In this document: positions 45,993-58,996 of the stretch, in pieces
How the letters are laid out: every line of letters starts with the position of its first letter
How positions within the stretch are numbered: position 1 is the stretch's first letter
Virus record (IMG/VR): IMGVR_UViG_3300027782_000038
Reading direction: 5' to 3' (one strand)
Source: a virus
DNA: 64,000 nt
Translations under genes and position numbers: made by a program
The notes under the pieces: generated by a model
Databases searched by the model: none
What the model was told of the DNA's origin: nothing
The model's input: the letters and a program-made list of their open reading frames with translations, nothing else

Positions 45993-46055
45993 TGTTGTTT
46001 TTTAGCAACACTCATCAAAAAATCTATTGACAGGACCTATTATCTATAGTATAAT
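45993..46055 (+). promoter_or_regulatory. Sigma70 promoter with upstream palindrome
   Basis: TGTTGT-N6-GCAACA (45993-46010), 16-bp gap, TTGACA-17-TATAAT, then AGAGTCT. Confidence 0.8.
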
Positions 46056-48032: not shown

Positions 48033-48557
48033 ATGCAATTAAGTATAGTTGGTTGTCCTGATAAAAAACTATTCAGACCATACGTCAAACGTGCAATTTT
48101 ATTTTATGCTGAAGAATTGTTTAGTAAGAAAATGTCAGAAAACGTATTTCTACAAGTTAAATTTAATGCTGAATTAGATGTTTATGGTTACGCTTCCGTT
48201 GAAGATTGTAATAGTAGTGGTAAACCAAGAGAATTTTTAGTAGAAATAAATTCAGAAATTGGTGCACCTGATATTTTAAAAACAATTGCACATGAAATGG
48301 TTCATGTTAAACAATTCCTTTATGGTGAAACCAACGAAACATTAACTCGTTGGAAAGGCATGAAGATATCAAGTGATACTAATTACTATTGTCAACCTTG
48401 GGAAATAGAAGCTCATGGAATGGAAGTTAGTTTGTTCTCAAGGTTTGCAATCAAGGAGAAACTTTGGGACGTATTTGAAGGTGTAAATAATCCGGACGGT
48501 CCGGTAAAACAAACGGATATTGGTTGGAAAGAATCATTTTTGAATAGTACGTTGTAA
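48033..48557 (+). CDS. Zinc metallopeptidase-like protein (HExxH)
   Basis: IAHEMVHVKQ and PWEIEA motifs. Confidence 0.7.
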   Translation: MQLSIVGCPDKKLFRPYVKRAILFYAEELFSKKMSENVFLQVKFNAELDVYGYASVEDCNSSGKPREFLVEINSEIGAPDILKTIAHEMVHVKQFLYGETNETLTRWKGMKISSDTNYYCQPWEIEAHGMEVSLFSRFAIKEKLWDVFEGVNNPDGPVKQTDIGWKESFLNSTL

Positions 48558-48621
48558 AAATACAACAAGTTTGGTATATATTAAGAAAAATCTTGCCTAT
48601 ATACATATATAAGAGTATAAT
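48550..48621 (+). promoter_or_regulatory. Sigma70 promoter of the leader peptide, with upstream palindrome
   Basis: CGTTGT-N6-ACAACA (48550-48567); TTGCCT(48593)-17-TATAAT(48616). Confidence 0.6.
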
Positions 48622-48657
48622 TGTTATATTGAATGAATTAAAACAAAAGGAAATATC

Positions 48658-48756
48658 GTGTTATCAATACAGAAACCATCCATGCATACAGAGTATCGCA
48701 CACCGAGCAATTGGTCAGCGATTGGCTTTGATTGCGTCCGTGGGGTTTGTGTATAG
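48658..48756 (+). CDS. Putative attenuator leader peptide MLSIQKPSMHTEYRTPSNWSAIGFDCVRGVCV (contains all 20 amino acids)
   Basis: AAGGA RBS 6 nt before GTG; 32 codons; its 3' end overlaps the antiterminator strand GGGGTTTGT. Confidence 0.75.
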   Translation: MLSIQKPSMHTEYRTPSNWSAIGFDCVRGVCV

Positions 48757-48821
48757 TTAGAAAGTAGTTTCCTCTAAATTTACAAACCCCAAGACCTAAA
48801 AAATCTTGGGGTTTTTCTTTT
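48742..48821 (+). terminator. Attenuator: antiterminator (48742-50 with 48782-90) versus intrinsic terminator (48784-94 with 48804-14, plus U tract)
   Basis: GGGGTTTGT/ACAAACCCC is mutually exclusive with AAACCCCAAGA/TCTTGGGGTTT-TTCTTTT. Confidence 0.8.
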
Positions 48822-48823
48822 CC

Positions 48824-48885
48824 TGTTGTACAAAAACAACACTTTAGAAAATAGTTGTTGACATAGTGTGTGGAACCTGTATAAT
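48824..48885 (+). promoter_or_regulatory. Sigma70 promoter with upstream palindrome
   Basis: TGTTGT-N6-ACAACA, 16-bp gap, TTGACA-16-TATAAT, then AGAGTCT. Confidence 0.8.
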
Positions 48886-48937
48886 AGAGTCTGTTGTGTA
48901 ACAAAACGTTCTTTAAAAATTAGAGTAGTACATATGT

Positions 48938-49013
48938 TGGGGTATCGCCTAGAGGCCTAAGGCATCGGTCTTTGAAATCGAGATCACTGGTTCGAATCCA
49001 GTTACCCCTGCCA
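48938..49013 (+). tRNA. tRNA-Gln(TTG)
   Basis: Cloverleaf; loop CT-TTG-AA, CCA. Confidence 0.92.
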
Positions 49014-49121
49014 TATTGAAGTACATTCAAGGCGTAGCGCACGCTGATATAGTGGACATAGCTAAGCTCTGAACAGGCATTGTTGGCAGGTTCGATTCCT
49101 GCGGAGTGTATTTCAATATGG
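49011..49121 (+). ncRNA. tRNA-like ncRNA (18-bp terminal helix plus T-arm)
   Basis: CCATATTGAAGTACATTC/GAGTGTATTTCAATATGG helix enclosing GCAGG-TTCGATT-CCTGC. Confidence 0.6.
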
Positions 49122-49213
49122 TAAGTAAGAATAGACGAAAAGTCACCGGTGAGACTAGATGCTTTGGCAACAGAGCTAGGTTTATTCTTGTCGATCTTGG
49201 CCAATCGACACCA
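49120..49213 (+). ncRNA. Structured ncRNA candidate ending in ACCA
   Basis: Stems AAGAATAGAC/GTTTATTCTT, GCTTTG-GCAA-CAGAGC and TGTCGAT/ATCGACA, then CCA. Confidence 0.45.
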
Positions 49214-49235
49214 TATTAATATGGTATTAACAAAT

Positions 49236-49323
49236 GGGTAGGTGGTAGAGTGGTCTATTGCTCCAGTCTTGAAAACTGGCGACTGGAAACGGTCCGTGGG
49301 TTCGAATCCCACCCTGCCCTCCA
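49236..49323 (+). tRNA. tRNA-Ser(TGA)
   Basis: Long variable arm; loop CT-TGA-AA, CCA. Confidence 0.92.
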
Positions 49324-49374
49324 TTATTGAAAACCAAAATGTACTAAATAAAGTCATACATTTTGGAGATAAAA

Positions 49375-49818
49375 ATGCAAAAAAGATCATCAGCTAGAGA
49401 TTTAGCTATACAGGAAAATAAAAAAACTTATTTAGCTAAACCTTGTAAATCATGCGGTACAAGTGAAAAATATGTAAGTAGTTATAGTTGTGTGAAATGC
49501 AATATTGAAAAGAATTCACATAAATTATTTAATAGTGATTTGATGGAAAAATACAGATCAAAATCAATATTAAATGCAAAAACATATAGGTATCGTTCTA
49601 GAAAAAGAAACCAGATGCCTGATGATGCAGATAAAGAAAAGATATTGGAGTTTTATAAAGAAGCAGAACGATTAACTGAAGAAACAGGAATCTTGTATAG
49701 TGTGGATCATATAATACCTTTATCGAAAGGAGGTCTACACCATCATGATAATTTACAAGTTATCACATTAAGTGAAAATAGTAGAAAGGGGAATAAATTA
49801 TGCCAGCCGTTTTCTTAA
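49375..49818 (+). CDS. HNH endonuclease
   Basis: VDHIIPLSKGGLH..DNLQVI...EN..K motif and N-terminal CxxC pairs. Confidence 0.88.
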   Translation: MQKRSSARDLAIQENKKTYLAKPCKSCGTSEKYVSSYSCVKCNIEKNSHKLFNSDLMEKYRSKSILNAKTYRYRSRKRNQMPDDADKEKILEFYKEAERLTEETGILYSVDHIIPLSKGGLHHHDNLQVITLSENSRKGNKLCQPFS

Positions 49819-50396
49819 CATCAGATAGCCACTTCGGCCACGCCGGTGTTTGTCGTTTTACACACCAAGATACAGGTGTAAAAATTAGACCATGGACAGA
49901 TCCAGATGAAATGGATGAAGCGATGGTCAAACTCTGGAACGAAAAAGTAGGTAAGAATGATAAAGTATATCACCTTGGTGACGTAGTAATTAACCGTAAA
50001 GCTCTTGGTATTATGCGTAGACTTAACGGTGATAAAGTTCTTATTCGTGGTAACCATGATATTTTTCGTGATGATGAATACCGCCAACATTTCAGAGAGC
50101 TTCGTGCTTATCATGTAATGAACGGAATGATTCTTTCACATATTCCACTTCATCCAGATAGTGTAGGTAGATTTGGTACTAACATTCATGGACACCTTCA
50201 TACGAACCGTGTTATGAAGGCGAAAGGAATTAATTATCCGACTGGAGAAATTATCTACAGCGAAACGGAGATTGATCCACGTTATCATTGTGTTTGTGTT
50301 GAACAAACAGATTTTACACCAATTCTTTTTGAAGATGTAATTAAGAGAATTGAAGCACAAGGTGGCAAGGTAGGTTTTCAGAACGGAAATGGGTAG
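49800..50396 (+). CDS. Calcineurin-like metallophosphoesterase
   Basis: SDSHFGH, HLGDV, GNHD, SHIP and HGHLH motifs. Confidence 0.9.
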   Translation: MPAVFLTSDSHFGHAGVCRFTHQDTGVKIRPWTDPDEMDEAMVKLWNEKVGKNDKVYHLGDVVINRKALGIMRRLNGDKVLIRGNHDIFRDDEYRQHFRELRAYHVMNGMILSHIPLHPDSVGRFGTNIHGHLHTNRVMKAKGINYPTGEIIYSETEIDPRYHCVCVEQTDFTPILFEDVIKRIEAQGGKVGFQNGNG

Positions 50397-50478
50397 TTGG
50401 CCGAGCGGTTAAGGCAAGGGATTGCTAATCCCTCATTGGGAAACCGATGGATAGGTTCGATTCCTATACTACCCGCCA
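50391..50478 (+). tRNA. tRNA-Ser(GCT)
   Basis: Long variable arm; loop TT-GCT-AA, CCA. Confidence 0.92.
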
Positions 50479-50486
50479 TTTTTAAT

Positions 50487-50564
50487 AGTGCGATGGCTGA
50501 GTGGTCAAAAGCAACGGATTGCAAATCCGTAAAATCGTCAGTTCAAATCTGACTCGCACTTCCA
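50487..50564 (+). tRNA. tRNA-Cys(GCA)
   Basis: Loop TT-GCA-AA, U73, CCA. Confidence 0.92.
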
Positions 50565-50626
50565 TGTTGTAAGAAAACAACAGATTGTAAAATACTTGTT
50601 GACATATTGTGTGGTTCATGTATAAT
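50565..50626 (+). promoter_or_regulatory. Sigma70 promoter with upstream palindrome
   Basis: TGTTGT-N6-ACAACA, 16-bp gap, TTGACA-16-TATAAT, then AGAGTCT. Confidence 0.8.
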
Positions 50627-50646
50627 AGAGTCTATTGTTTAGTAAT

Positions 50647-50721
50647 GCACCGTTAGACTTCTGGTGAGGTCACCACCCTTTCAAGGTGGCTAGATGGGAT
50701 CGTAACCCATACGGTGTACCA
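50647..50721 (+). tRNA. tRNA-Glu(TTC)
   Basis: Loop CT-TTC-AA, atypical T-loop ATCGTAA, CCA. Confidence 0.85.
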
Positions 50722-50728
50722 GTTTAAT

Positions 50729-50804
50729 GCAGGCATAACTCAACTGGTAGAGTAATCGGCTTTTAACCGATAAGTTGTGAGTTCAAGTCTCACTGCCTGT
50801 ACCA
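50729..50804 (+). tRNA. tRNA-Lys(TTT)
   Basis: Loop CT-TTT-AA, CCA. Confidence 0.92.
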
Positions 50805-50818
50805 AAGAATTTTTTGGT

Positions 50819-50892
50819 GTGACTATGTTGTAACGGTAGCAACGCAGTTTGTGATTCTGCTAGTCTGGGTTCAACTCCCAGTAGTCACCCCA
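50819..50892 (+). tRNA. tRNA-His(GTG)
   Basis: Loop TT-GTG-AT, C73, CCA. Confidence 0.88.
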
Positions 50893-50904
50893 AAAAGTTT
50901 TAAT

Positions 50905-50979
50905 GGCTCGTTAGTATAATGGTTATTACAGAGGATTGTCTATCCTCCTATGGGAGTTCGATTCTCCCACGGGTCGCCA
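50905..50979 (+). tRNA. tRNA-Asp(GTC)
   Basis: Loop TT-GTC-TA, G73, CCA. Confidence 0.92.
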
Positions 50980-50981
50980 AG

Positions 50982-51079
50982 TTTTGCACCTGGCGTAATG
51001 GTAGCGTTACAGGTTAGTATCGAAAGGTATGCCCGAGAGGCGATGCGGGAGGTGCAGGTTCGAATCCTGCGGTGCAAAA
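50982..51079 (+). ncRNA. tRNA-like RNA lacking an anticodon arm and CCA
   Basis: Acceptor TTTTGCACC/GGTGCAAAA, D-like TGGCGTAATGGTAGCG and T-arm GCAGG-TTCGAAT-CCTGC; the middle is replaced by small GAAA/GAGA hairpins. Confidence 0.6.
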
Positions 51080-51088
51080 AAAGTTTAT

Positions 51089-51172
51089 GCGTTGGATGCT
51101 CTAATGGTAGGGCAGCGGGCTGTAACCCCGTGGTTTTAGGACAAGTAGGTTCGATCCCTACCCAACGCACCA
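51089..51172 (+). tRNA. tRNA-Tyr(GTA)
   Basis: Loop CT-GTA-AC, variable arm, CCA. Confidence 0.9.
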
Positions 51173-51242
51173 AGTTTTATTTGGAGAACACTTTAATTGT
51201 ATAAATTGTTCAATTTATAAATACTCCAAAAAGGAGTGTGAT

Positions 51243-51806
51243 ATGTGGTCTTGTAAACATTGTAACGAAGAATTTAATTTTATTACGACTAGTGAAAAAG
51301 GTAATCATACTAGATGGTGTGAAAAAAATCCAAATAGAGTTAGTGTTAATCTTTTAAATTCTATAAAAAATAGAATGATCAATAAATTTGGTGATTATAA
51401 AAAATTTGATGTTATTTGTAATGAATGTAATACAATTTTTATTGTAGAAGAAAGATATAAACTTTTTCCTTCAAAAGAAAAATACTTTTGTTCACGAAAC
51501 TGTGCAAATAGTGTTGGTGGTAAAGCTAAAAGAGAAAAGTATGGTTTAACCGGATATGTTTCTATTGCAAAACAATTTTATGAAGAAAAATGTATAGTTT
51601 GTGGTTATGATGAATTAGTTGATGTTCATCATATAAATGGAGATAGGAATAACAATGAAGCAACAAATTTAGTGTTCCTATGTCCAAATCACCATTATCT
51701 TTTACATAGAAAAAAATCAGAAAAAGTTAAACAAGCAATTTCAGAATTTATAGAAAAAAAATGGGGTCAAGGTGTTGATGACGGCACACGAGATTTGCAA
51801 TCTTGA
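51243..51806 (+). CDS. HNH endonuclease with zinc fingers
   Basis: CIVCG....VDVHHINGDRNNN...NL..LCPNHH motif; late promoter at 51216-51223. Confidence 0.88.
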   Translation: MWSCKHCNEEFNFITTSEKGNHTRWCEKNPNRVSVNLLNSIKNRMINKFGDYKKFDVICNECNTIFIVEERYKLFPSKEKYFCSRNCANSVGGKAKREKYGLTGYVSIAKQFYEEKCIVCGYDELVDVHHINGDRNNNEATNLVFLCPNHHYLLHRKKSEKVKQAISEFIEKKWGQGVDDGTRDLQS

Positions 51807-51837
51807 AGGTAGAGTTTGATTCTCTATGGCTCCACCA
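51763..51837 (+). tRNA. tRNA-Ala(TGC)
   Basis: G3:U70 pair; loop TT-TGC-AA, CCA; overlaps the 3' end of the HNH gene. Confidence 0.82.
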
Positions 51838-51859
51838 AGTTTTAAATAGTGTTCTTTGT

Positions 51860-51934
51860 CTGGGTATATTGTCAATCTGGTAGACGGCCTTGTTTGGAAC
51901 GAGGAGGCTGTAGGTTCAAATCCTACTACCCAGA
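51860..51934 (+). tRNA. tRNA-Pro(TGG), CCA not encoded
   Basis: C1:G72, A73, loop TT-TGG-AA; followed by CAA. Confidence 0.85.
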
Positions 51935-51947
51935 CAAAGAACATTAT

Positions 51948-52022
51948 GGAAGTATAGCGTAGAGGTAGCGCAGCGCCTTCATACGGCGTAGGTCGTAAGT
52001 TCAAATCTTACTACTTCCACCA
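51948..52022 (+). tRNA. tRNA-Met(CAT), elongator type
   Basis: Paired G1:C72; loop TT-CAT-AC, CCA. Confidence 0.87.
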
Positions 52023-52027
52023 GTTTT

Positions 52028-52102
52028 AGGTCCTTAGTAAAATGAATATTACATTTCGCTACGAACGAAAAAGTGAAGGTTTGATTCCTTCAGGACCTTC
52101 CA
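52028..52102 (+). tRNA. tRNA-Arg(ACG)
   Basis: Loop CT-ACG-AA; atypical D and T loops; CCA. Confidence 0.82.
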
Positions 52103-52112
52103 AGTATTAAAT

Positions 52113-52146
52113 GCTGGGGTGCTCAGAGGAAGAGCAATGTGTTGAT
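52113..52146 (+). pseudogene. 5' half-tRNA remnant ending at anticodon GAT (Ile)
   Basis: GCTGGGGT-GCTC-AGAGGAA-GAGC-A-ATGTG-TT-GAT, followed directly by the endonuclease promoter. Confidence 0.6.
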
Positions 52147-52176
52147 CTATACTAAATAAGTATAGGAGAGTAAAAA

Positions 52177-52779
52177 ATGTCAAAATTTCAAATAAAATGT
52201 TGTTGTATTAAATGTAAGATTGAAACTACAACGGGGCAACTTACACGAAATCATAAAGATAAATGTCCGAGTATTAACGTTGTTAAATTTCCTAAAAATA
52301 TAGGAAGAACCGCATGGAATAAAGGATTAACTAAAGAAACTTCTGAATCTTTATCAAAAGCAAGCGAGACTATGAAAAGATTAGGTCACGGTGGGTGGTC
52401 AAAGACAGCTGCTACAAATGGCGGAAAAGCCGGTGGCGGATATAGAGAGAACGCTGGCCGAAGTAAAAAATTCAAAGTAACAGATTCATTCGGAAAAGAA
52501 ACTGTCTTGCAAAGTACATACGAATTAAGATGTAGTGATATATTAAATGAATTAGCAATTAATTGGATTCGTCCAAAAGCGTTAAAATACGATAATAGGA
52601 ATTACTTTGCTGATTTTTACCTGCCAGATTACAATATCTGGCTTGATCCTAAAAATAGTTATAAAGCAAAGCAAGACGAAGAAAAAATAAGAAAAGTGAT
52701 AGAACAAAACAATGTTAAATTATATATTTTGTTAGAAGAACATCTTACTGAAGAATTTATACAACACCTTTGTAGTTAA
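52177..52779 (+). CDS. PD-(D/E)xK-type putative homing endonuclease
   Basis: QSTYE...Y.ADFYLPDYNIWLDPK and AWNKGLTKET (NUMOD-type) motifs. Confidence 0.75.
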   Translation: MSKFQIKCCCIKCKIETTTGQLTRNHKDKCPSINVVKFPKNIGRTAWNKGLTKETSESLSKASETMKRLGHGGWSKTAATNGGKAGGGYRENAGRSKKFKVTDSFGKETVLQSTYELRCSDILNELAINWIRPKALKYDNRNYFADFYLPDYNIWLDPKNSYKAKQDEEKIRKVIEQNNVKLYILLEEHLTEEFIQHLCS

Positions 52780-52839
52780 ATGGTATAACAGCCGCTTGAT
52801 AAGCGGCCATTACAAGTTCAATTCTTGTCGAAGGTACCA
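52766..52839 (+). tRNA. tRNA-Ile(GAT)
   Basis: Loop TT-GAT-AA, CCA; overlaps the endonuclease stop codon. Confidence 0.9.
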
Positions 52840-52845
52840 AGTTTT

Positions 52846-52920
52846 ATCGCTCTAGTGTCAACGGCAGCACAACTGACTCCAAATCAGCTGGTGAGGGTTC
52901 GAATCCTTCGGGCGGTGCCA
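52846..52920 (+). tRNA. tRNA-Trp(CCA)
   Basis: Loop CT-CCA-AA, G73, CCA. Confidence 0.9.
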
Positions 52921-52928
52921 AGTTTTAA

Positions 52929-53002
52929 GCGGGTATGATGTAAAGGTAACCTGACACCTTGCCAAGGTGTATTTGAGAGTTCGATTCTCTCTACCCGCTC
53001 CA
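52929..53002 (+). tRNA. tRNA-Gly(GCC)
   Basis: GCG acceptor, U73, loop TT-GCC-AA. Confidence 0.92.
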
Positions 53003-53022
53003 TTTAACAAGGAGAATATATT

Positions 53023-53499
53023 GTGCGTACTATTGATATTCAAGAAGTAAAATCTTTCATCGAGTCTCAGGGTCCTGATACAAAGATTTATATTGGTGGT
53101 GACTCCGAAAGATTTAATCTTGGTAATGTATGGTACGCTGATTACACTCTTGCTATTGTTGTTCATGTGAATGGAAACAATGGTTGTAAAATTTTCGGTG
53201 AAGTTCAACGTGAACGTGATTGGGATGCTAAAAAAGACCGACCACGGATGCGATTAATGAATGAGGTTTATAAGATTGCCGAATTATATTTAAAGTTACA
53301 AGATGTATTAGAAGATCGTGTGGTAGAAGTTCACTTGGACATTAATCCAAACGAAATGCATGGTTCATCTTGTGTTATTAATGAAGCAATAGGTTACATC
53401 AAAGGTATGTGTAATGTTATTCCTTTGGTTAAACCACAAGCGTTTGCTGCTTCTTATGCAGCAGATAGATTGAAGTTTGTTTTAGATAGAGCAGCATAA
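53023..53499 (+). CDS. YkuK-family RNase H-like protein
   Basis: IYIGGDS, EVHLDIN..G.S and KP.AFAAS.AAD motifs. Confidence 0.8.
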   Translation: MRTIDIQEVKSFIESQGPDTKIYIGGDSERFNLGNVWYADYTLAIVVHVNGNNGCKIFGEVQRERDWDAKKDRPRMRLMNEVYKIAELYLKLQDVLEDRVVEVHLDINPNEMHGSSCVINEAIGYIKGMCNVIPLVKPQAFAASYAADRLKFVLDRAA

Positions 53500-53500
53500 C

Positions 53501-53575
53501 GGATTCTTAGCACAGCGGTAGTGCGGCTCCCTTACAAGGAGTAGGTCGTAGGTTCAATCCCTACAGAATCCACCA
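53501..53575 (+). tRNA. tRNA-Val(TAC)
   Basis: Loop CT-TAC-AA, CCA. Confidence 0.92.
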
Positions 53576-53580
53576 ATACT

Positions 53581-53656
53581 GCTGACTTAGCTGATGTGGT
53601 CATAGCGGCGGTTTGAAGAACCGTTGAAGTTGGTTCGATTCCAACAGTTAGCACCA
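53581..53656 (+). tRNA. tRNA-Phe(GAA)
   Basis: Loop TT-GAA-GA, CCA. Confidence 0.9.
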
Positions 53657-53661
53657 GAATT

Positions 53662-53738
53662 GCCTCGGTGACGTAATTGGTAGCCGTGTTGGTCTTAGAA
53701 ACCAAATTCTGTGGGTTCGAGTCCCACCTGAGGCACCA
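53662..53738 (+). tRNA. tRNA-Leu(TAG) with short variable loop
   Basis: Leu-type D-arm; loop CT-TAG-AA; 5-nt variable region; CCA. Confidence 0.85.
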
Positions 53739-53747
53739 AGTTTACCA

Positions 53748-53785
53748 ATATATCACTTGACTTTAAAACTTGAGTGATATATAAT
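53748..53785 (+). promoter_or_regulatory. Sigma70 promoter overlapped by an inverted repeat
   Basis: TTGACT(53757)-17-TATAAT(53780); ATATATCACT...AGTGATATAT. Confidence 0.6.
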
Positions 53786-53800
53786 AGTATATAAGAGTTA

Positions 53801-53875
53801 GCCCTCATAGTATAATGGCCATTACAGTTGACTTGTAATCATCAAATCCTAGTTCGATTCCAGGTGGGGGCACCA
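53801..53875 (+). tRNA. tRNA-Thr(TGT)
   Basis: Loop CT-TGT-AA, CCA. Confidence 0.88.
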
Positions 53876-53885
53876 AAGTTTTTAT

Positions 53886-53951
53886 GCGGCGTGTTTAGGA
53901 CAGTGAAGGTGACCAACCTGATCTCTAGTGTCGAAACTAGGCGCCGCTCCA
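53886..53951 (+). ncRNA. Degenerate 66-nt tRNA-Gly-like RNA (possible ACC anticodon)
   Basis: Acceptor GCGGCGT/GCGCCGC with U73 and CCA; reduced D-arm; non-canonical T-loop. Confidence 0.6.
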
Positions 53952-53972
53952 GTTTTTTTATTGTGAGATAAT

Positions 53973-54197
53973 ATGTTTGTTAAATTGACCAATGCTAATC
54001 CTGCTTTTTCAGGTAAACCACTTCTTATTAGGAAAGATTTAATTGTGACTGTGTACGAAGGTACACTAACGCATGAGGATACTTCTACTGAATCAGTAAC
54101 GTTTGTTTTTGCACCACCTCATGGTGAGTGGCAAGTTAAAGAAAGTGTTGAAGAAGTATTACGATCATTAAGAATTGCAACAACAAAGTTAGATTGA
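53973..54197 (+). CDS. Small FlbD-like protein
   Basis: MFVKLT.....G.P..I..DLI..V.E....T......VKESVEEV pattern. Confidence 0.5.
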   Translation: MFVKLTNANPAFSGKPLLIRKDLIVTVYEGTLTHEDTSTESVTFVFAPPHGEWQVKESVEEVLRSLRIATTKLD

Positions 54198-54205
54198 AGT
54201 TTTAT

Positions 54206-54281
54206 TCCCCAGTAGCTCAGTCGGTAGAGCAAAACACTGTTAATGTTTGGGTCATTGGTTCAAGTCCAGTCTGGGGAGCCA
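54206..54281 (+). tRNA. tRNA-Asn(GTT)
   Basis: TCC acceptor; loop CT-GTT-AA, G73, CCA. Confidence 0.93.
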
Positions 54282-54302
54282 TTTTATAAAAAAGGTAGTA
54301 AT

Positions 54303-54500
54303 ATGAAAGCAGTTTTGTCTAGTGTTATATCAGTATTGGCACTTACTGGATGTGTAGTAACAGATCCATATTATGTTCAACCTGTGCCAATATATGTTCA
54401 ACCTAGACCTGTGTATATCGTTCCGCAAGTTCGTTGTTATTATATGCAACAATGGAATGGTTATAAAAGACAATATCAAACTGTTCATATTTGTCGTTAA
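54303..54500 (+). CDS. Small putative lipoprotein
   Basis: MKAVLSSVISVLALTG-C lipobox; Pro/Tyr-rich mature part. Confidence 0.65.
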   Translation: MKAVLSSVISVLALTGCVVTDPYYVQPVPIYVQPRPVYIVPQVRCYYMQQWNGYKRQYQTVHICR

Positions 54501-54511
54501 GAAGTAAATAT

Positions 54512-54585
54512 GCGAGATTAGTTTAATGGTAAAACTCCTTCCTTCCAAGTAGGTGTCATCAGTTCGATTCTGATATCTCGCTCCA
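54512..54585 (+). tRNA. tRNA-Gly(TCC)
   Basis: GCG acceptor, U73, loop CT-TCC-AA. Confidence 0.9.
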
Positions 54586-54606: not shown

Positions 54607-54918
54607 ATGGAAATTATTGCTTTAAAATTAATTACAGGTGAAGATGTTTTAGGTGAACTTGAATCTGAAACAGAACTTGTTGTAGTATTATCTAATCCAG
54701 TTGGTATCGCTGTCGTTCGTGGTAAAGACGGTACACCAAATATCGGATTCTCGCCGTTCCCTATTCATGCGGAACAAAAAAAAGACAACTCAATTGTTTT
54801 CTTAAATAAACACGTTGTTTATCATTATATACCAGCTGAAGATTTTATTACAAATTACAAACAAATCTTTGGTTCAGGTATCGTAGTTCCACCCCAAAAA
54901 CAGATTATTACAGGTTAA
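54607..54918 (+). CDS. Conserved T4-like hypothetical protein (Sm-like fold likely)
   Basis: LKLITGEDVLG...NPV...Y...FGSGIV.P pattern; directly upstream of gp43. Confidence 0.65.
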   Translation: MEIIALKLITGEDVLGELESETELVVVLSNPVGIAVVRGKDGTPNIGFSPFPIHAEQKKDNSIVFLNKHVVYHYIPAEDFITNYKQIFGSGIVVPPQKQIITG

Positions 54919-56216
54919 TGAGCAAATATTATACAAACGTTCAATGTTTCGGTAACAGTATTCTTTACCGAGGCATTATAGACGGTAAACGTGTTAAACA
55001 GAGAATTGATTATTCTCCATCACTTTATCTCCCATCAAGAAAGAATCCACAGGGAAAATTCAAATCACTAACTGGTCTTCCATTAGATCAAAAAGAATTT
55101 GATGATATTCGTGCAGCCAGAGATTTCATCAAGCAATTTGATGGTCTTCCTGGTGCACCTGTCATCTATGGTCAAAATCGTTTTGAGTATGCTTATATTG
55201 CCGATAACAATAAAGGTATGGTTGATTACGATCAGGATAAAATTCTTATCGGTGTAGTTGATATTGAGGTTGGTTCAGAGAATGGTTTTCCTGATCCATA
55301 CCTTGCAAACGAACCAATCACAGCCATTGGCATTAAGTATCTCAATGGTGAAATGGTTGTATTTGGTTGCGGTGATTATGAGAAGAAAGGTACCGAGATT
55401 TACGTCAAATGTAAAGATGAATGGACACTATGCAAAAAGTTTCTAGAATTATGGCAAAAGAAATGTCCAGATATCATCACAGGATGGAACACAAAGTTCT
55501 TTGATATTCCATATCTCATCAATCGTTTTCGTAAGATTCTTGGTGAAGATGATGCTAAGAAATTATCACCATGGAATTACATTGGTGAACGTAAAACCAC
55601 CATTAATGGTAAACAGTTAATTGCCTATGACATGATGGGTGTTGCATCACTTGATTATATTGAACTATACAAATGGTATGCTCCTGGTGGTAAGTCACAA
55701 GAATCATATCGTTTGGATAACATTGCTCAAAATGAATTGGGTGAAGGTAAAATTTCATATGATGAATATGATAACCTACATTCATTGTATCGTTTGAACT
55801 TTCAATTGTTTATTGAATATAACATCAAAGACGTTGAATTGATTGTTAAGTTGGAAGATAAATTAAAGTTACTTGAGATGGCTGTTACTTTGGCCTACGA
55901 TACTAAATCAAACTATGAGGATGTATTTGCACAGACCCGTATGTGGGACGCAATGACTTATTCTTATCTTTTAGAAAAGGATATCATTGTACCACCACGT
56001 ATCATCAAAGAAAAAGATGGTATGTTTGAAGGTGCATACGTTAAAGAAGTACAAGTTGGTGCTCATGATTGGGTTGCCAGCTTTGACCTAAATTCACTTT
56101 ACCCCCACCTTATGATGCAATATTCCATAAGTCCTGAAAATCTTGTGGAAAGAAGTTATATTGAAGATAGAAAACAAAAATTGATCGAGGAGTTAAAGTT
56201 GAGAAATACTAAATAA
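54918..56216 (+). CDS. gp43: DNA polymerase gp43, fragment A (N-terminal and exonuclease domains plus palm motif A)
   Basis: DIEV (ExoI), GWN..FFDIPY (ExoII), YNIKDV (ExoIII) and SFDLNSLYP (motif A). Confidence 0.95.
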   Translation: MSKYYTNVQCFGNSILYRGIIDGKRVKQRIDYSPSLYLPSRKNPQGKFKSLTGLPLDQKEFDDIRAARDFIKQFDGLPGAPVIYGQNRFEYAYIADNNKGMVDYDQDKILIGVVDIEVGSENGFPDPYLANEPITAIGIKYLNGEMVVFGCGDYEKKGTEIYVKCKDEWTLCKKFLELWQKKCPDIITGWNTKFFDIPYLINRFRKILGEDDAKKLSPWNYIGERKTTINGKQLIAYDMMGVASLDYIELYKWYAPGGKSQESYRLDNIAQNELGEGKISYDEYDNLHSLYRLNFQLFIEYNIKDVELIVKLEDKLKLLEMAVTLAYDTKSNYEDVFAQTRMWDAMTYSYLLEKDIIVPPRIIKEKDGMFEGAYVKEVQVGAHDWVASFDLNSLYPHLMMQYSISPENLVERSYIEDRKQKLIEELKLRNTK

Positions 56217-56245
56217 GTAGATGTGGTTACTTATTAGGAGAATCA

Positions 56246-56779
56246 ATGAAATACAATATTACCAAAGATAAACTCTATGAATTGTTTATTACCAAGAATA
56301 TGAGAAGGAGTGAGGTTGCCGAATATTTTGGTTGTTCGGATGCCAACATTAAAAAATACCTACAAAAATTTGCCATCAAGAAGCCTTTTGATTTAGAATG
56401 TAAGAATAAAGAACGAAAGGCCTTGTTGAATTGCTTACATTGTAATAATGAATATGAAACACAAAAGTTTCGGACTGAAAGTGATAAGTATGATTCAAAA
56501 TATTGTAGTTATTCCTGTGCTCAAAAAAGTAGATATTTGGGTGGCGACCACAAACGTAGAATCAGAAATGAAATTGCTGCAAGGCGTAGAGCAAGAATTC
56601 GTAACCAAACACCAAAATTGAGTAAAGAAGAAAAGAAAAAGTTACAAGAATATTATTTGATTTGTCCTAAAGGACATGAAGTGGATCACATACAAGCAAT
56701 TGCAAAAGGTGGTTTACATCATCCTGATAACTTACAGATATTGACTATGAATGAGAATAGAAAAAAGTGGTGTAAATAA
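56246..56779 (+). CDS. HNH endonuclease splitting gp43 between fragments A and B
   Basis: N-terminal HTH, CxxC/YCSxxC and EVDHI.....GGLH.PDNLQIL...EN motifs. Confidence 0.88.
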   Translation: MKYNITKDKLYELFITKNMRRSEVAEYFGCSDANIKKYLQKFAIKKPFDLECKNKERKALLNCLHCNNEYETQKFRTESDKYDSKYCSYSCAQKSRYLGGDHKRRIRNEIAARRRARIRNQTPKLSKEEKKKLQEYYLICPKGHEVDHIQAIAKGGLHHPDNLQILTMNENRKKWCK

Positions 56780-57105
56780 TGTTTCGTAATGTAAAAGAAT
56801 TAACAACCGAAGAACTACAAAAAGAAATTCAGGCCATAGAATTATTTGAACAAGAAATTGGTAAAGTCAATGTTGAGAATATGTTGAACAAATCTATTGA
56901 TACTTCTTTTCTTGGTCCAATGAAATGCACCATCACACCTAACGGCCAGATGTTTAGAACCGACCATCAAGGTTTCTTACCAAGAATGATGGAAGAAATG
57001 TATGAAGATCGTAAGAAATTTAAAAAGTTGATGCTCAAGGCTCAACAAGAGTATGAGTTAGTTTTAGCGGAGATTGAAAAAAGAAGAGGTTTGCAAGAAA
57101 AATAA
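56779..57105 (+). CDS. gp43: DNA polymerase gp43, fragment B (palm segment plus first finger helix)
   Basis: PNGQMFR....GFLP.MM..MY.DRK.FKK.M is the gp43 segment between motifs A and B. Confidence 0.9.
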   Translation: MFRNVKELTTEELQKEIQAIELFEQEIGKVNVENMLNKSIDTSFLGPMKCTITPNGQMFRTDHQGFLPRMMEEMYEDRKKFKKLMLKAQQEYELVLAEIEKRRGLQEK

Positions 57106-57140
57106 TACTAAATAGAGCATGGTCTAAAAAAGGATGATAA

Positions 57141-57917
57141 ATGCCCAATCAATTTAGTGTTATAACAAAAGAAATAGAATCTAAATTAAATGAAATAGAA
57201 AGTATGTTGAAAAGTGGATATAGTGTGGGTGAAATTCAAAAAAAATTGATAAAATATAGTTATAGTGGTATATACAATTGTATTCAAAAGAATGGTTTAT
57301 CCAAATATGTTTCCACTAAAAACATAGGAAAAAGCAGAACATATAAGAAAATGTTAGATGATTATGATAATAACCATGAATTAAATTTTGAAACATTAAA
57401 TCAGTTATATAATGTTGATAAAAAAGATTTATATGAAATTGCTAAAATGTTTGGAGTTAGTCCTTCTGGTGTATTATATCGTATGAGAAAATTGGGTTTA
57501 CAGACCCGAAATAAATCGGAAGCTTCTGAAATCCTTTATATGAAAAAACCTGAACTGAGGGAAACTCATCGTAAAAATGCAAATGAAGGTAAAACAGGAA
57601 TATTCAAAAAAGGAAATAATTATTCAAACACTTGGATAGAAATAGCATTTAGGGAATACTGTGAACTACATAATATACAATTTCAACCACAATTTCAAAT
57701 AACAAAAGATACTCATAGATATGATTTTTTAATTGGCAAAAACATCTTAGTTGAACTTGATGGAACATATTGGCACAACAAGCCAAAACAAAAAGAGAAA
57801 GATGTATTACAGGAAGAATATGCAATAAACAACGGTTTTGTTGTATTGAGGATTACCGATAAACAAATAAAAGAAACAAAAGGTGAATGTTTTGAAATCA
57901 TTAAACGATATGTCTGA
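57141..57917 (+). CDS. Vsr/DUF559-like endonuclease splitting gp43 between fragments B and C
   Basis: T.IE, YDFLI....LVELDGTYWH, D......GF.VLRI motifs plus HTH repeats. Confidence 0.85.
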   Translation: MPNQFSVITKEIESKLNEIESMLKSGYSVGEIQKKLIKYSYSGIYNCIQKNGLSKYVSTKNIGKSRTYKKMLDDYDNNHELNFETLNQLYNVDKKDLYEIAKMFGVSPSGVLYRMRKLGLQTRNKSEASEILYMKKPELRETHRKNANEGKTGIFKKGNNYSNTWIEIAFREYCELHNIQFQPQFQITKDTHRYDFLIGKNILVELDGTYWHNKPKQKEKDVLQEEYAINNGFVVLRITDKQIKETKGECFEIIKRYV

Positions 57918-58996
57918 TTCCGAATTGATTAGTTATAAAAATGAACTGGAAAGGAGAGTTGCAAGATATAATAATTTGCAACTTGCGAAAAAGGTGTCAC
58001 TTTAACTCCGCTTACGGTGCTTTGGGTAGTCAGTACTTTCGTTTTTATGATCTGCGTATGGCACTTGGTGTCACTTCTGCTGGCCAACTTTCCATTAGGT
58101 GGATTGAGTCTAAAATTAACAATTGGATGAATAAAATCATTGGATCTAAAGATGTAGATTATGTTATTGCATCTGATACAGATTCCATTTATCTTCGTAT
58201 GGGTGAATTGGTTGACAAGTTTATCAAAGATACATCCGATAAACAAAAAGTAATCTCACTCATGGATAAAATCTGTGAAGAAAAGATTCAACCATTTATT
58301 GATAAGTCTTATGTTGAGTTAGCTGATTACGTTCATGCATATGATCAAAAGATGCAGATGAAGCGTGAAGGACTATCAGACAAAGGTATTTGGACTGCCA
58401 AGAAACGTTATATTCTAAACGTGTATAATAATGAAGGTGTTCAGTATGCAGAACCTAAGATGAAAGTCATGGGTCTTGAAATGGTCAAATCTTCAACACC
58501 AGCTTCTATTCGTGAAAAGATGAAAGAGTCTATTGGTATTATGTTACGTGGTACTGAACAAGATATTCATAAATTCATTGCTGACTTTAGACAAGAATTT
58601 AAAAAGTTACCTGCTGAAGAAATTTCTTTTCCACGTGGACTGAATGGCTTAGCTAAATACTCAGATGCAGTATCATTGTATAAACTTGGTACACCTATTC
58701 ATGTGAAAGGTGCCATTCTCTATAACAATTATTTGAAACAAAACAATCTTACTAAAAAGTATCCACTCATCCAAGAGGGAGAAAAGGTTAAGTTTACCTA
58801 TTTGAAACTACCAAACCATTTTAAAGATATGGTAATTTCATACCCAAGTAGACTTCCTAAAGAATTAGGCCTTGACAAGTACATAGATTATGATGTACAA
58901 TTTGATAAGGCCTTCTTGGAACCAATCAAAGTCATTCTTAATTGTTTGGGTTGGACAACTGAAAAGGTAAACTCACTGGAAGATTTCTTCAAATAA
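57892..58996 (+). CDS. gp43: DNA polymerase gp43, fragment C (second finger helix, motifs B and C, thumb); requires a +1 shift at 58000-58006
   Basis: Frame 57892 reads MKSLNDMSDSEL...ARYNNLQLAKKVSL* and the +1 frame continues NSAYGALG...SDTDS...KKRY, ending in the clamp-binding tail SLEDFF. Confidence 0.88.
57991..58006 (+). other. Candidate prfB-like +1 frameshift site (or 1-nt insertion error)
   Basis: AAG GTG TCA CTT TAA C aligns with prfB AGG GGG TAT CTT TGA C. Confidence 0.5.

Follow-up and report, generated by a model that had tools for sequence, protein, structure and literature searches.

The window (the whole 64,000-nt stretch of DNA analysed) belongs to an uncultured T4-like phage, with genes for a major head protein (28794), the late sigma factor gp55 (33703) and RegA (45035). 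Judged by the clamp loader, its nearest cultured relatives, Methylophilales phage Melnitz and cyanophages, are only ~60% identical, and no DNA match to the window was found among cultured phages. Between a gene without assigned function (48033-48557) and a large tRNA array lies the element described here, a putative attenuator with its own promoter, leader reading frame and intrinsic terminator (Table 1), of which the window holds no second copy. A preliminary description of the locus had drawn on three tRNAs upstream of this element to reach all 20 amino acids. These are not needed: the downstream array alone serves all 20 when tRNA-Ala(UGC) (51763-51834), found by Rfam and missed by ARAGORN at its default settings, is counted. 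Internal promoters of the array lie at 50599 and 53757.

Several other elements are embedded in the array. Between tRNA-Gln and tRNA-Ser are two folded non-coding elements (49014-49115 and 49116-49222), neither of which belongs to an Rfam family; the first is tRNA-like, with a 12-bp closing stem and a T-arm, and has a single match (69%), in the related locus L296. Another tRNA-like RNA (50984-51078, Rfam tRNA score 39 bits) has an acceptor stem and a T-arm, with two GAAA/GAGA-loop hairpins replacing the anticodon arm, and no homologue was found among related loci. A short, folded, GC-rich element 3' of tRNA-Thr (53885-53955) ends in CCA and gave no family match. Three endonuclease-like ORFs (49363-49818, 51243-51806 and 52177-52779), each preceded by a phage late box, are patchily distributed among relatives; a calcineurin-like phosphoesterase gene (49800-50396) is kept within the array in 13 related loci and an RNase H-like gene (PF04308, 53023-53499) in 16. 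The 3' end of an HNH-like ORF overlaps the tRNA-Ala, and that of the phosphoesterase ORF likewise lies inside tRNA-Ser at 50391. A DNA polymerase-like coding region (54918-58996) is split into three pieces by ORFs at 56246 and 57141, which resemble mobile endonucleases, carry late boxes and possibly mark two introns.

Table 1 Features of the leader and of the array that follows it (positions in the window)
Feature	Position	Strand	Remarks
Leader promoter	48593..48621	+	sigma70-type -35/-10; late-type boxes in the spacer: CTATATA at 48597, CATATATA at 48604
Shine-Dalgarno sequence AAGGA	48647..48651	+	6 nt 5' of the GTG start
Leader ORF	48658..48756	+	32 codons encoding all 20 amino acids, 19 of them within codons 2-26
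Region 1, anti-antiterminator strand	48667..48677	+	predicted to cause termination without a loaded ribosome; pairing with region 2 at -12.6 kcal/mol
Region 2, 5' strand of the antiterminator	48742..48751	+	within codons 29-32
Region 3	48781..48790	+	common to the antiterminator and the 5' arm of the terminator
Intrinsic terminator	48784..48821	+	stem 48784-48814, U tract to 48821; conserved in alignment A1
Bypass sigma70 promoter	48858..48885	+	TTGACA-16-TATAAT, 37 nt 3' of the U tract
boxA-like site (putative)	48907..48918	+	5' of the first tRNA; shared by 40 of 76 members, frequently with no intervening promoter
tRNA array	48938..54585	+	22 canonical tRNAs for 20 amino acids; also tRNA-like RNAs and embedded ORFs

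Leader frame and computed RNA switch

The promoter (TTGCCT-17-TATAAT) and ribosome-binding site of the preliminary description were both found in place. Purine-rich equivalents of the latter occur in four relatives (L081, L055, L070 and L120), and many other members look leaderless. The leader ORF, said to be absent from the ORF list, is present at the locus and is listed when the length cut-off is lowered. We could also reproduce the finding that 27 codons suffice for all 20 amino acids, and the figure of about 72 random draws needed at equal frequencies is right. At phage amino-acid frequencies the chance of 20 types is 3e-4, 76 of 48,788 base shuffles reached them, and the leader is the sole ORF with 20 types among 673 short ORFs in the window (p ~0.001 for this coverage). 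One such case could be luck, and homologues were therefore used as the test. Repeated residues had been described as varying their codons and thereby sampling many isoacceptors; 30 of the 32 codons are indeed distinct, but the repeated Gly and Val codons GGG, GTT and GTA lie outside the sensing stretch defined below, in or after the antiterminator strand, where stalls could not be sensed. The ORF contains a stable hairpin. No curated Rfam covariance model, T-box included, fits the leader, the only match being a sub-threshold one to the NsiR1 hairpin (E 2.2, 48765-48820).

The pairing previously reported between 48742-48750 and 48782-48790 is an exact complement, and the terminator with its U tract was likewise recovered, with a z-score of -3.2 for the stem (-3.55 for the antiterminator fragment and -4.5 for the whole leader). 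An alternative helix between 48667-48677 and 48744-48754 does form, but with 10 of 11 pairs and one G.G mismatch. The strength of region 1 differs among relatives, as does the default state without a ribosome. Terminator and antiterminator are mutually exclusive, as expected of an attenuator.

Folding with the ribosome footprint masked, a check suggested at the outset, was carried out on the RNA made by the time the U tract is reached. In this model, an A site at codons 2-26 is predicted to give the antiterminator and hence read-through, codon 27 is a transition, and a ribosome at codon 28 or beyond, or none at all, gives the terminator (whose value of 0.49 is the ceiling of the measure and not half occupancy). 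A ribosome at the stop would cover region 2, and one at the sensing codons would leave it free. The read-through codons comprise 19 amino acids, with Val borderline, and the sensing stretch closes at codon 27, where the twentieth type first occurs. Its extent is model-dependent: when the RNA is allowed to pair around the ribosome, from codon 16 onwards region 2 is captured by region 1, and sensing would be confined to codons 2-15, with 12 types. Such pairing across the ribosome is sterically less likely but cannot be excluded.

In the alignment of relatives, 94.6% of antiterminator cells are paired, as against 33-55% in slid registers, and six pairs show double changes, a result reached by 0 of 500 shuffles. 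Some antiterminator columns were fixed by the search patterns, which nevertheless left room for unpaired combinations at the columns that vary. Region 2 can fall in any of the three reading frames, mostly 6-24 nt 5' of the stop, which indicates a constraint on the RNA.

Relatives, coverage and codon choice

A scan upstream of relatives' tRNA arrays had been put forward as a way to check the locus, and it returned diverged leaders with broad coverage and a conserved antiterminator. A search by the neighbouring protein, blind to both peptide and RNA, gave 80 loci, among which L044, L055, L070, L073, L075-78 and L080 have leaders of 19-20 types before tRNAs; other loci have a short leader type of 22-25 codons, and many have no leader. 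Three RNA-only patterns widened the set, with a tRNA within 700 nt in 78 of 113 distinct viral matches. This left 76 analysable viral leaders in 30 clusters of <50% identity, their start codons assigned from promoter and Shine-Dalgarno position. A metagenome scan added 37 new long leaders before tRNAs, 33 of them with all 20 amino acids; these were called by an automatic rule and, being related to the first set, are not fully independent of it. Long leaders keep 18-20 amino acids despite sequence turnover, as peptides fall to 33-50% identity and residues relocate, with loose motifs (Trp-Gln and Tyr-Arg) common to many members. They stand before arrays of 12-20 types where the sequence suffices (7 types are seen in L081), and short leaders stand before arrays of 4-11 types.

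Homologues without broad coverage or antiterminator pairing were to count against the preliminary description. None occurred among the long leaders, but the short type has no excess coverage, and nor do a few outliers (L100, L244 and L277); short-type leaders are consequently not counted as all-amino-acid sensors. Those of L008, L032, L046, L050, L059, L063 and their kin, probably on leaderless mRNAs, place a single Trp codon towards the end of the sensing stretch, with tRNA-Trp at or near the start of the array, and Ala is present in the leaders of all three arrays that begin with tRNA-Ala. A residue-by-residue match between leader and array in this type is only suggestive. In three further loci (L001:2830-2898, L014:6488-6554 and L048:6488-6558), region 3 and the terminator directly follow the upstream gene without a leader, and the end of that gene resembles region 2, which hints at deletion by recombination.

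As region 2 itself encodes Gly, Val, Cys and Phe, counts over the whole ORF were replaced by counts made only upstream of the point at which the ribosome covers region 2. The sensing stretch of the window has 19 types in 25 codons, compared with 13-14 expected (p 0.0002-0.0015), and p was below 0.05 in 21-22 of the 30 clusters under base, codon-position and phage-protein nulls. Combined p-values are optimistic because the clusters share descent. Under an inheritance-aware null, in which shared residues are kept and changed ones redrawn, coverage was 18.5 observed versus 16.2 (34/37 pairs). Sole copies of an amino acid are better conserved than redundant copies of the same amino acid (stratified odds ratio 2.3). 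Positions of Trp, Cys, His and Phe are scattered across clusters, and Tyr clusters 12-19 codons 5' of region 2, partly explained by the internal hairpin. Val falls outside the sensing stretch in 13 of 30 clusters, Gly in 9 and internal Met in 13.

Selection is also visible in the choice of synonymous codons. U-ending codons for Ala, Val, Pro, Thr and four-box Ser make up 16 of 220 in the leader frame versus 34% and 22% in the other frames; they lie below the U content in 24 of 24 clusters, are absent from the window leader (0/8) and number 38 of 392 in the metagenome set. U is not generally avoided, since 81% of two-box NNY codons end in it. This bias is good evidence that the leader frame is translated, although translation is here inferred from selection. 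In bacteria having both, U-ending four-box codons are read by G34 and cmo5U34 tRNAs (PMC3303843). With two tRNAs reading such codons, their avoidance would make each codon depend on a single tRNA; that this is the reason for the bias is our inference, and the tRNA set of the host is unknown. GAT, TAT and CGC are also preferred, but since these codons form the internal hairpin we do not take the preference as evidence of sensing.

Promoters and proposed mechanism

The leader promoter aligns with TTGACT-17-TATAAT of the close relative L081. Over ~75 nt the promoter at 48858 nearly duplicates the one at 50599, and both share the run TATAATAGAGTCT with a third sigma70 promoter at 46027. In 20 of 76 members, the window included, a sigma70 promoter separates the first tRNA from the terminator; L081 has none there, which points to a variable cassette. 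An internal promoter precedes tRNA-Glu in at least 14 of 35 long-leader arrays. In the preliminary description, the leader gates the array. Gating is a better fit for 56 of the 76 relatives; in the window the promoter at 48858 bypasses the switch, and the attenuator can thus only add to array transcription. The accompanying caveat, that sigma70 promoters at 48858, 50599 and 53757 limit its share, is borne out by the presence of all three, and we count the two perfect ones, at 48858 and 50599, against our main reading. The boxA-like site is interpreted from the role of boxA in rRNA operons; its function is inferred and binding is untested. Where no promoter intervenes, read-through seems meant to enter an untranslated operon.

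The late box of the phage, (C/A)TAAATA, is seen before head, tail and endonuclease genes. Of 72 leader promoters, 62 have the box or a variant that differs from it by one base, compared with 3 of 120 internal sigma70 promoters and 0 of 20 bypass promoters. The variant was defined after the data had been seen and can overlap the -10 box; the exact box is found in 8 of 30 clusters against a background of ~2%. Host-type promoters fade late in T4. If the same holds here, the attenuator would govern late expression of the array, an inference that remains post hoc.

The trp/his-type attenuator geometry first proposed for the locus has held up, as leader frame, switch geometry and selection for broad coverage recur across many diverged relatives. 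We have little doubt that the element is a real attenuator, although regulation itself is inferred in the absence of expression, ribosome or termination data. It is probable that it acts in this phage as a ribosome-operated, broad sensor of the tRNA pool, with the response to stalling inferred. Host RNA polymerase would transcribe the leader with a ribosome behind it. On reaching codon 28 or beyond, the ribosome would cover region 2, the terminator would form and transcription would stop near 48821. A ribosome waiting at codons ~2-26 without a usable tRNA would let region 2 pair with region 3, and the terminator could not be completed; the polymerase would then pass the boxA-like site and transcribe the tRNA array, and the tRNAs so made would end the stall. 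Without a ribosome, region 1 may hold region 2 and make termination the default. In the window, the attenuator would boost an array that has sigma70 promoters of its own, and it would probably matter most late in infection.

The leader codons correspond to the controlled output, a 20-type leader preceding a 20-type array. An extra tRNA cures the loss of tRNA molecules and not the lack of an amino acid, and we therefore infer that cleavage, decay or limitation of tRNA is a likelier stimulus than starvation. A more far-reaching reading is that the phage audits its whole decoding pool, by a leader that selection maintains, each codon being chosen to report one tRNA whose loss induces late transcription of a full set of replacements in a feedback loop. 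Here we are evenly divided between belief and doubt, with late timing and feedback both inferred. If true, the element would be an inducible, target-agnostic counter-defence against anticodon nucleases or host RNA decay. The reason for which phages carry tRNAs has been in dispute for decades (PMC10264068). Array transcription tied to decoding failure would speak for replacement rather than for steady codon compensation, and the inducing losses would show which tRNAs the phage expects to lose. Attenuation, familiar from enzyme genes of cells, would then extend to tRNA genes and to phages. The element could also serve as a small natural reporter that signals the depletion of any charged tRNA, and so be of use in screens of tRNA-targeting defence systems and synthetase inhibitors.

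Alternative explanations and known systems

The same switch might instead sense translation stress in general (ribosome damage, inhibitors or a falling supply of ribosomes), with codon identity secondary and the mixed composition merely keeping any one amino acid from dominating. A single codon makes a weaker sensor than a tandem run, and in the folding model a stall anywhere in codons 2-26 would give read-through. The whiB7 leader, moreover, responds to both antibiotics and starvation (PMC10274678). A general sensor, however, has no need to keep each rare amino acid once, and it is unlikely in view of a coverage that survives turnover, conserved sole copies, a non-random synonymous choice and a leader breadth that follows array breadth. 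It is also possible that the family is a real tRNA-pool sensor while the copy in the window is largely bypassed from 48858 or narrowed to its first 15 codons. The TTGACA-16-TATAAT promoter just 37 nt after the U tract, in a variable cassette that L081 lacks, would allow the former, unrestricted folding confines read-through to codons 2-15, and several relatives (L001, L014 and L048) keep the terminator only. Still, the window leader is intact, with its 20 types, perfect antiterminator and none of eight four-box codons ending in U, other members with a bypass promoter keep 17-20 types, and the late-type box is missing from all 20 bypass promoters; we find this reading quite unlikely.

More remote is a role for the peptide or the terminated RNA as the product (a small protein, an arrest peptide or an sRNA), with the terminator merely ending upstream transcription, as it does for the upstream gene of leaderless relatives. 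The Trp-Gln and Tyr-Arg motifs and the stable hairpin within the ORF are compatible with this, but a product is hard to reconcile with peptides at 33-50% identity whose residues relocate, with a covarying antiterminator whose distance from the stop is fixed and which would be purposeless, or with a boxA that follows without any promoter in many members. Arrest peptides such as TnaC, ErmCL and SpeFL have conserved residues spaced at a fixed interval from the stall site. In the phage leaders, Trp, Cys, His and Phe scatter and Tyr clusters, which points clearly neither way. We judge a role as product very improbable overall. Luck alone, by which one of 673 short ORFs beside an ordinary terminator would reach 20 types (p ~1e-3), is refuted by the homologues, more than 100 diverged sequences that agree in layout, coverage and covariation. 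The preferred reading remains a sensor of the tRNA pool.

Its geometry of regions 1-4 is that of the trpL, hisL, leuL, thrL, ilvL and pheM (of pheST) leaders. Amino-acid-operon leaders have runs of one to four amino acids and control enzymes, whereas the phage leader devotes one or two codons to each of almost all amino acids and has genes for untranslated RNAs under its control. With no tandem codons for operon-made amino acids, no runs and near-maximal diversity, it falls outside the amino-acid-specific subclass of attenuators. The same RNA pattern and covariance model match leuA, asd and ilvB-type leaders of Polynucleobacter, Planctomycetota and Hyphomonadaceae, which are rich in their own amino acids (11-14 types) and switch alike in the folding model; as far as such modelling goes, they are a positive control for geometry and a contrast for composition. 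In bacterial genomes, a search with one exact pattern yielded attenuators specific to particular amino acids, one leader of 17 types and, within bins, a few contigs that are likely phage. It gave no cellular leader of 19-20 types, which a single pattern cannot exclude. The 17-type leader (L187:3790-3972, uncultured Pseudomonadales) has 33 codons and the same RNA switch and precedes a protein gene. The same antiterminator/terminator pattern was seen before leuA-like genes in many genomes of Planctomycetota (L169, L171, L172, L178, L185 and other loci).

As in rRNA operons, where boxA binds NusB/NusE, a boxA-like sequence stands just 5' of a long untranslated RNA operon; unlike theirs, the phage site comes after an attenuator and is putative, without binding data. 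A further parallel is with phage tRNA arrays able to make good the destruction of host tRNAs. The tRNA-Lys of T5 counters PARIS, an example of phage tRNAs answering tRNA-targeting defence, in a report with no mention of attenuation (PMC11464382), and both tRNA-cleaving defences and rescue from them by phage tRNAs are established (PMC11464382), such rescue being shown or proposed in the papers on the subject (PMC11464382; PMC10264068; PMC11555353). In a literature search that did not extend to most subscription papers, neither an attenuator of phage tRNA genes nor any inducible control of arrays came to light.

Broad sensing by a uORF is not a new principle; what we did not find in the literature searched is a conserved coding for all amino acids, in a phage, with tRNAs as the output. 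The closest parallel is whiB7/wblC of Actinobacteria, in which a uORF overlaps the antiterminator and terminator and sensing is broad (PMC10274678). The Mycobacterium smegmatis whiB7 uORF has 19 amino acids, and removal of its single Trp codon reduces the response to Trp, which indicates that single codons can be sensors (PMC10274678). The phage leader does not belong to this family, the downstream genes being tRNAs, and no homology is shown or claimed. The whiB7 uORFs are Ala-enriched (25-40%), lack several amino acids in other species and control a transcription factor (PMC10274678), whereas the phage leaders conserve breadth itself in 31-53 codons, of which Ala accounts for 5.4%, and their output is tRNA genes.
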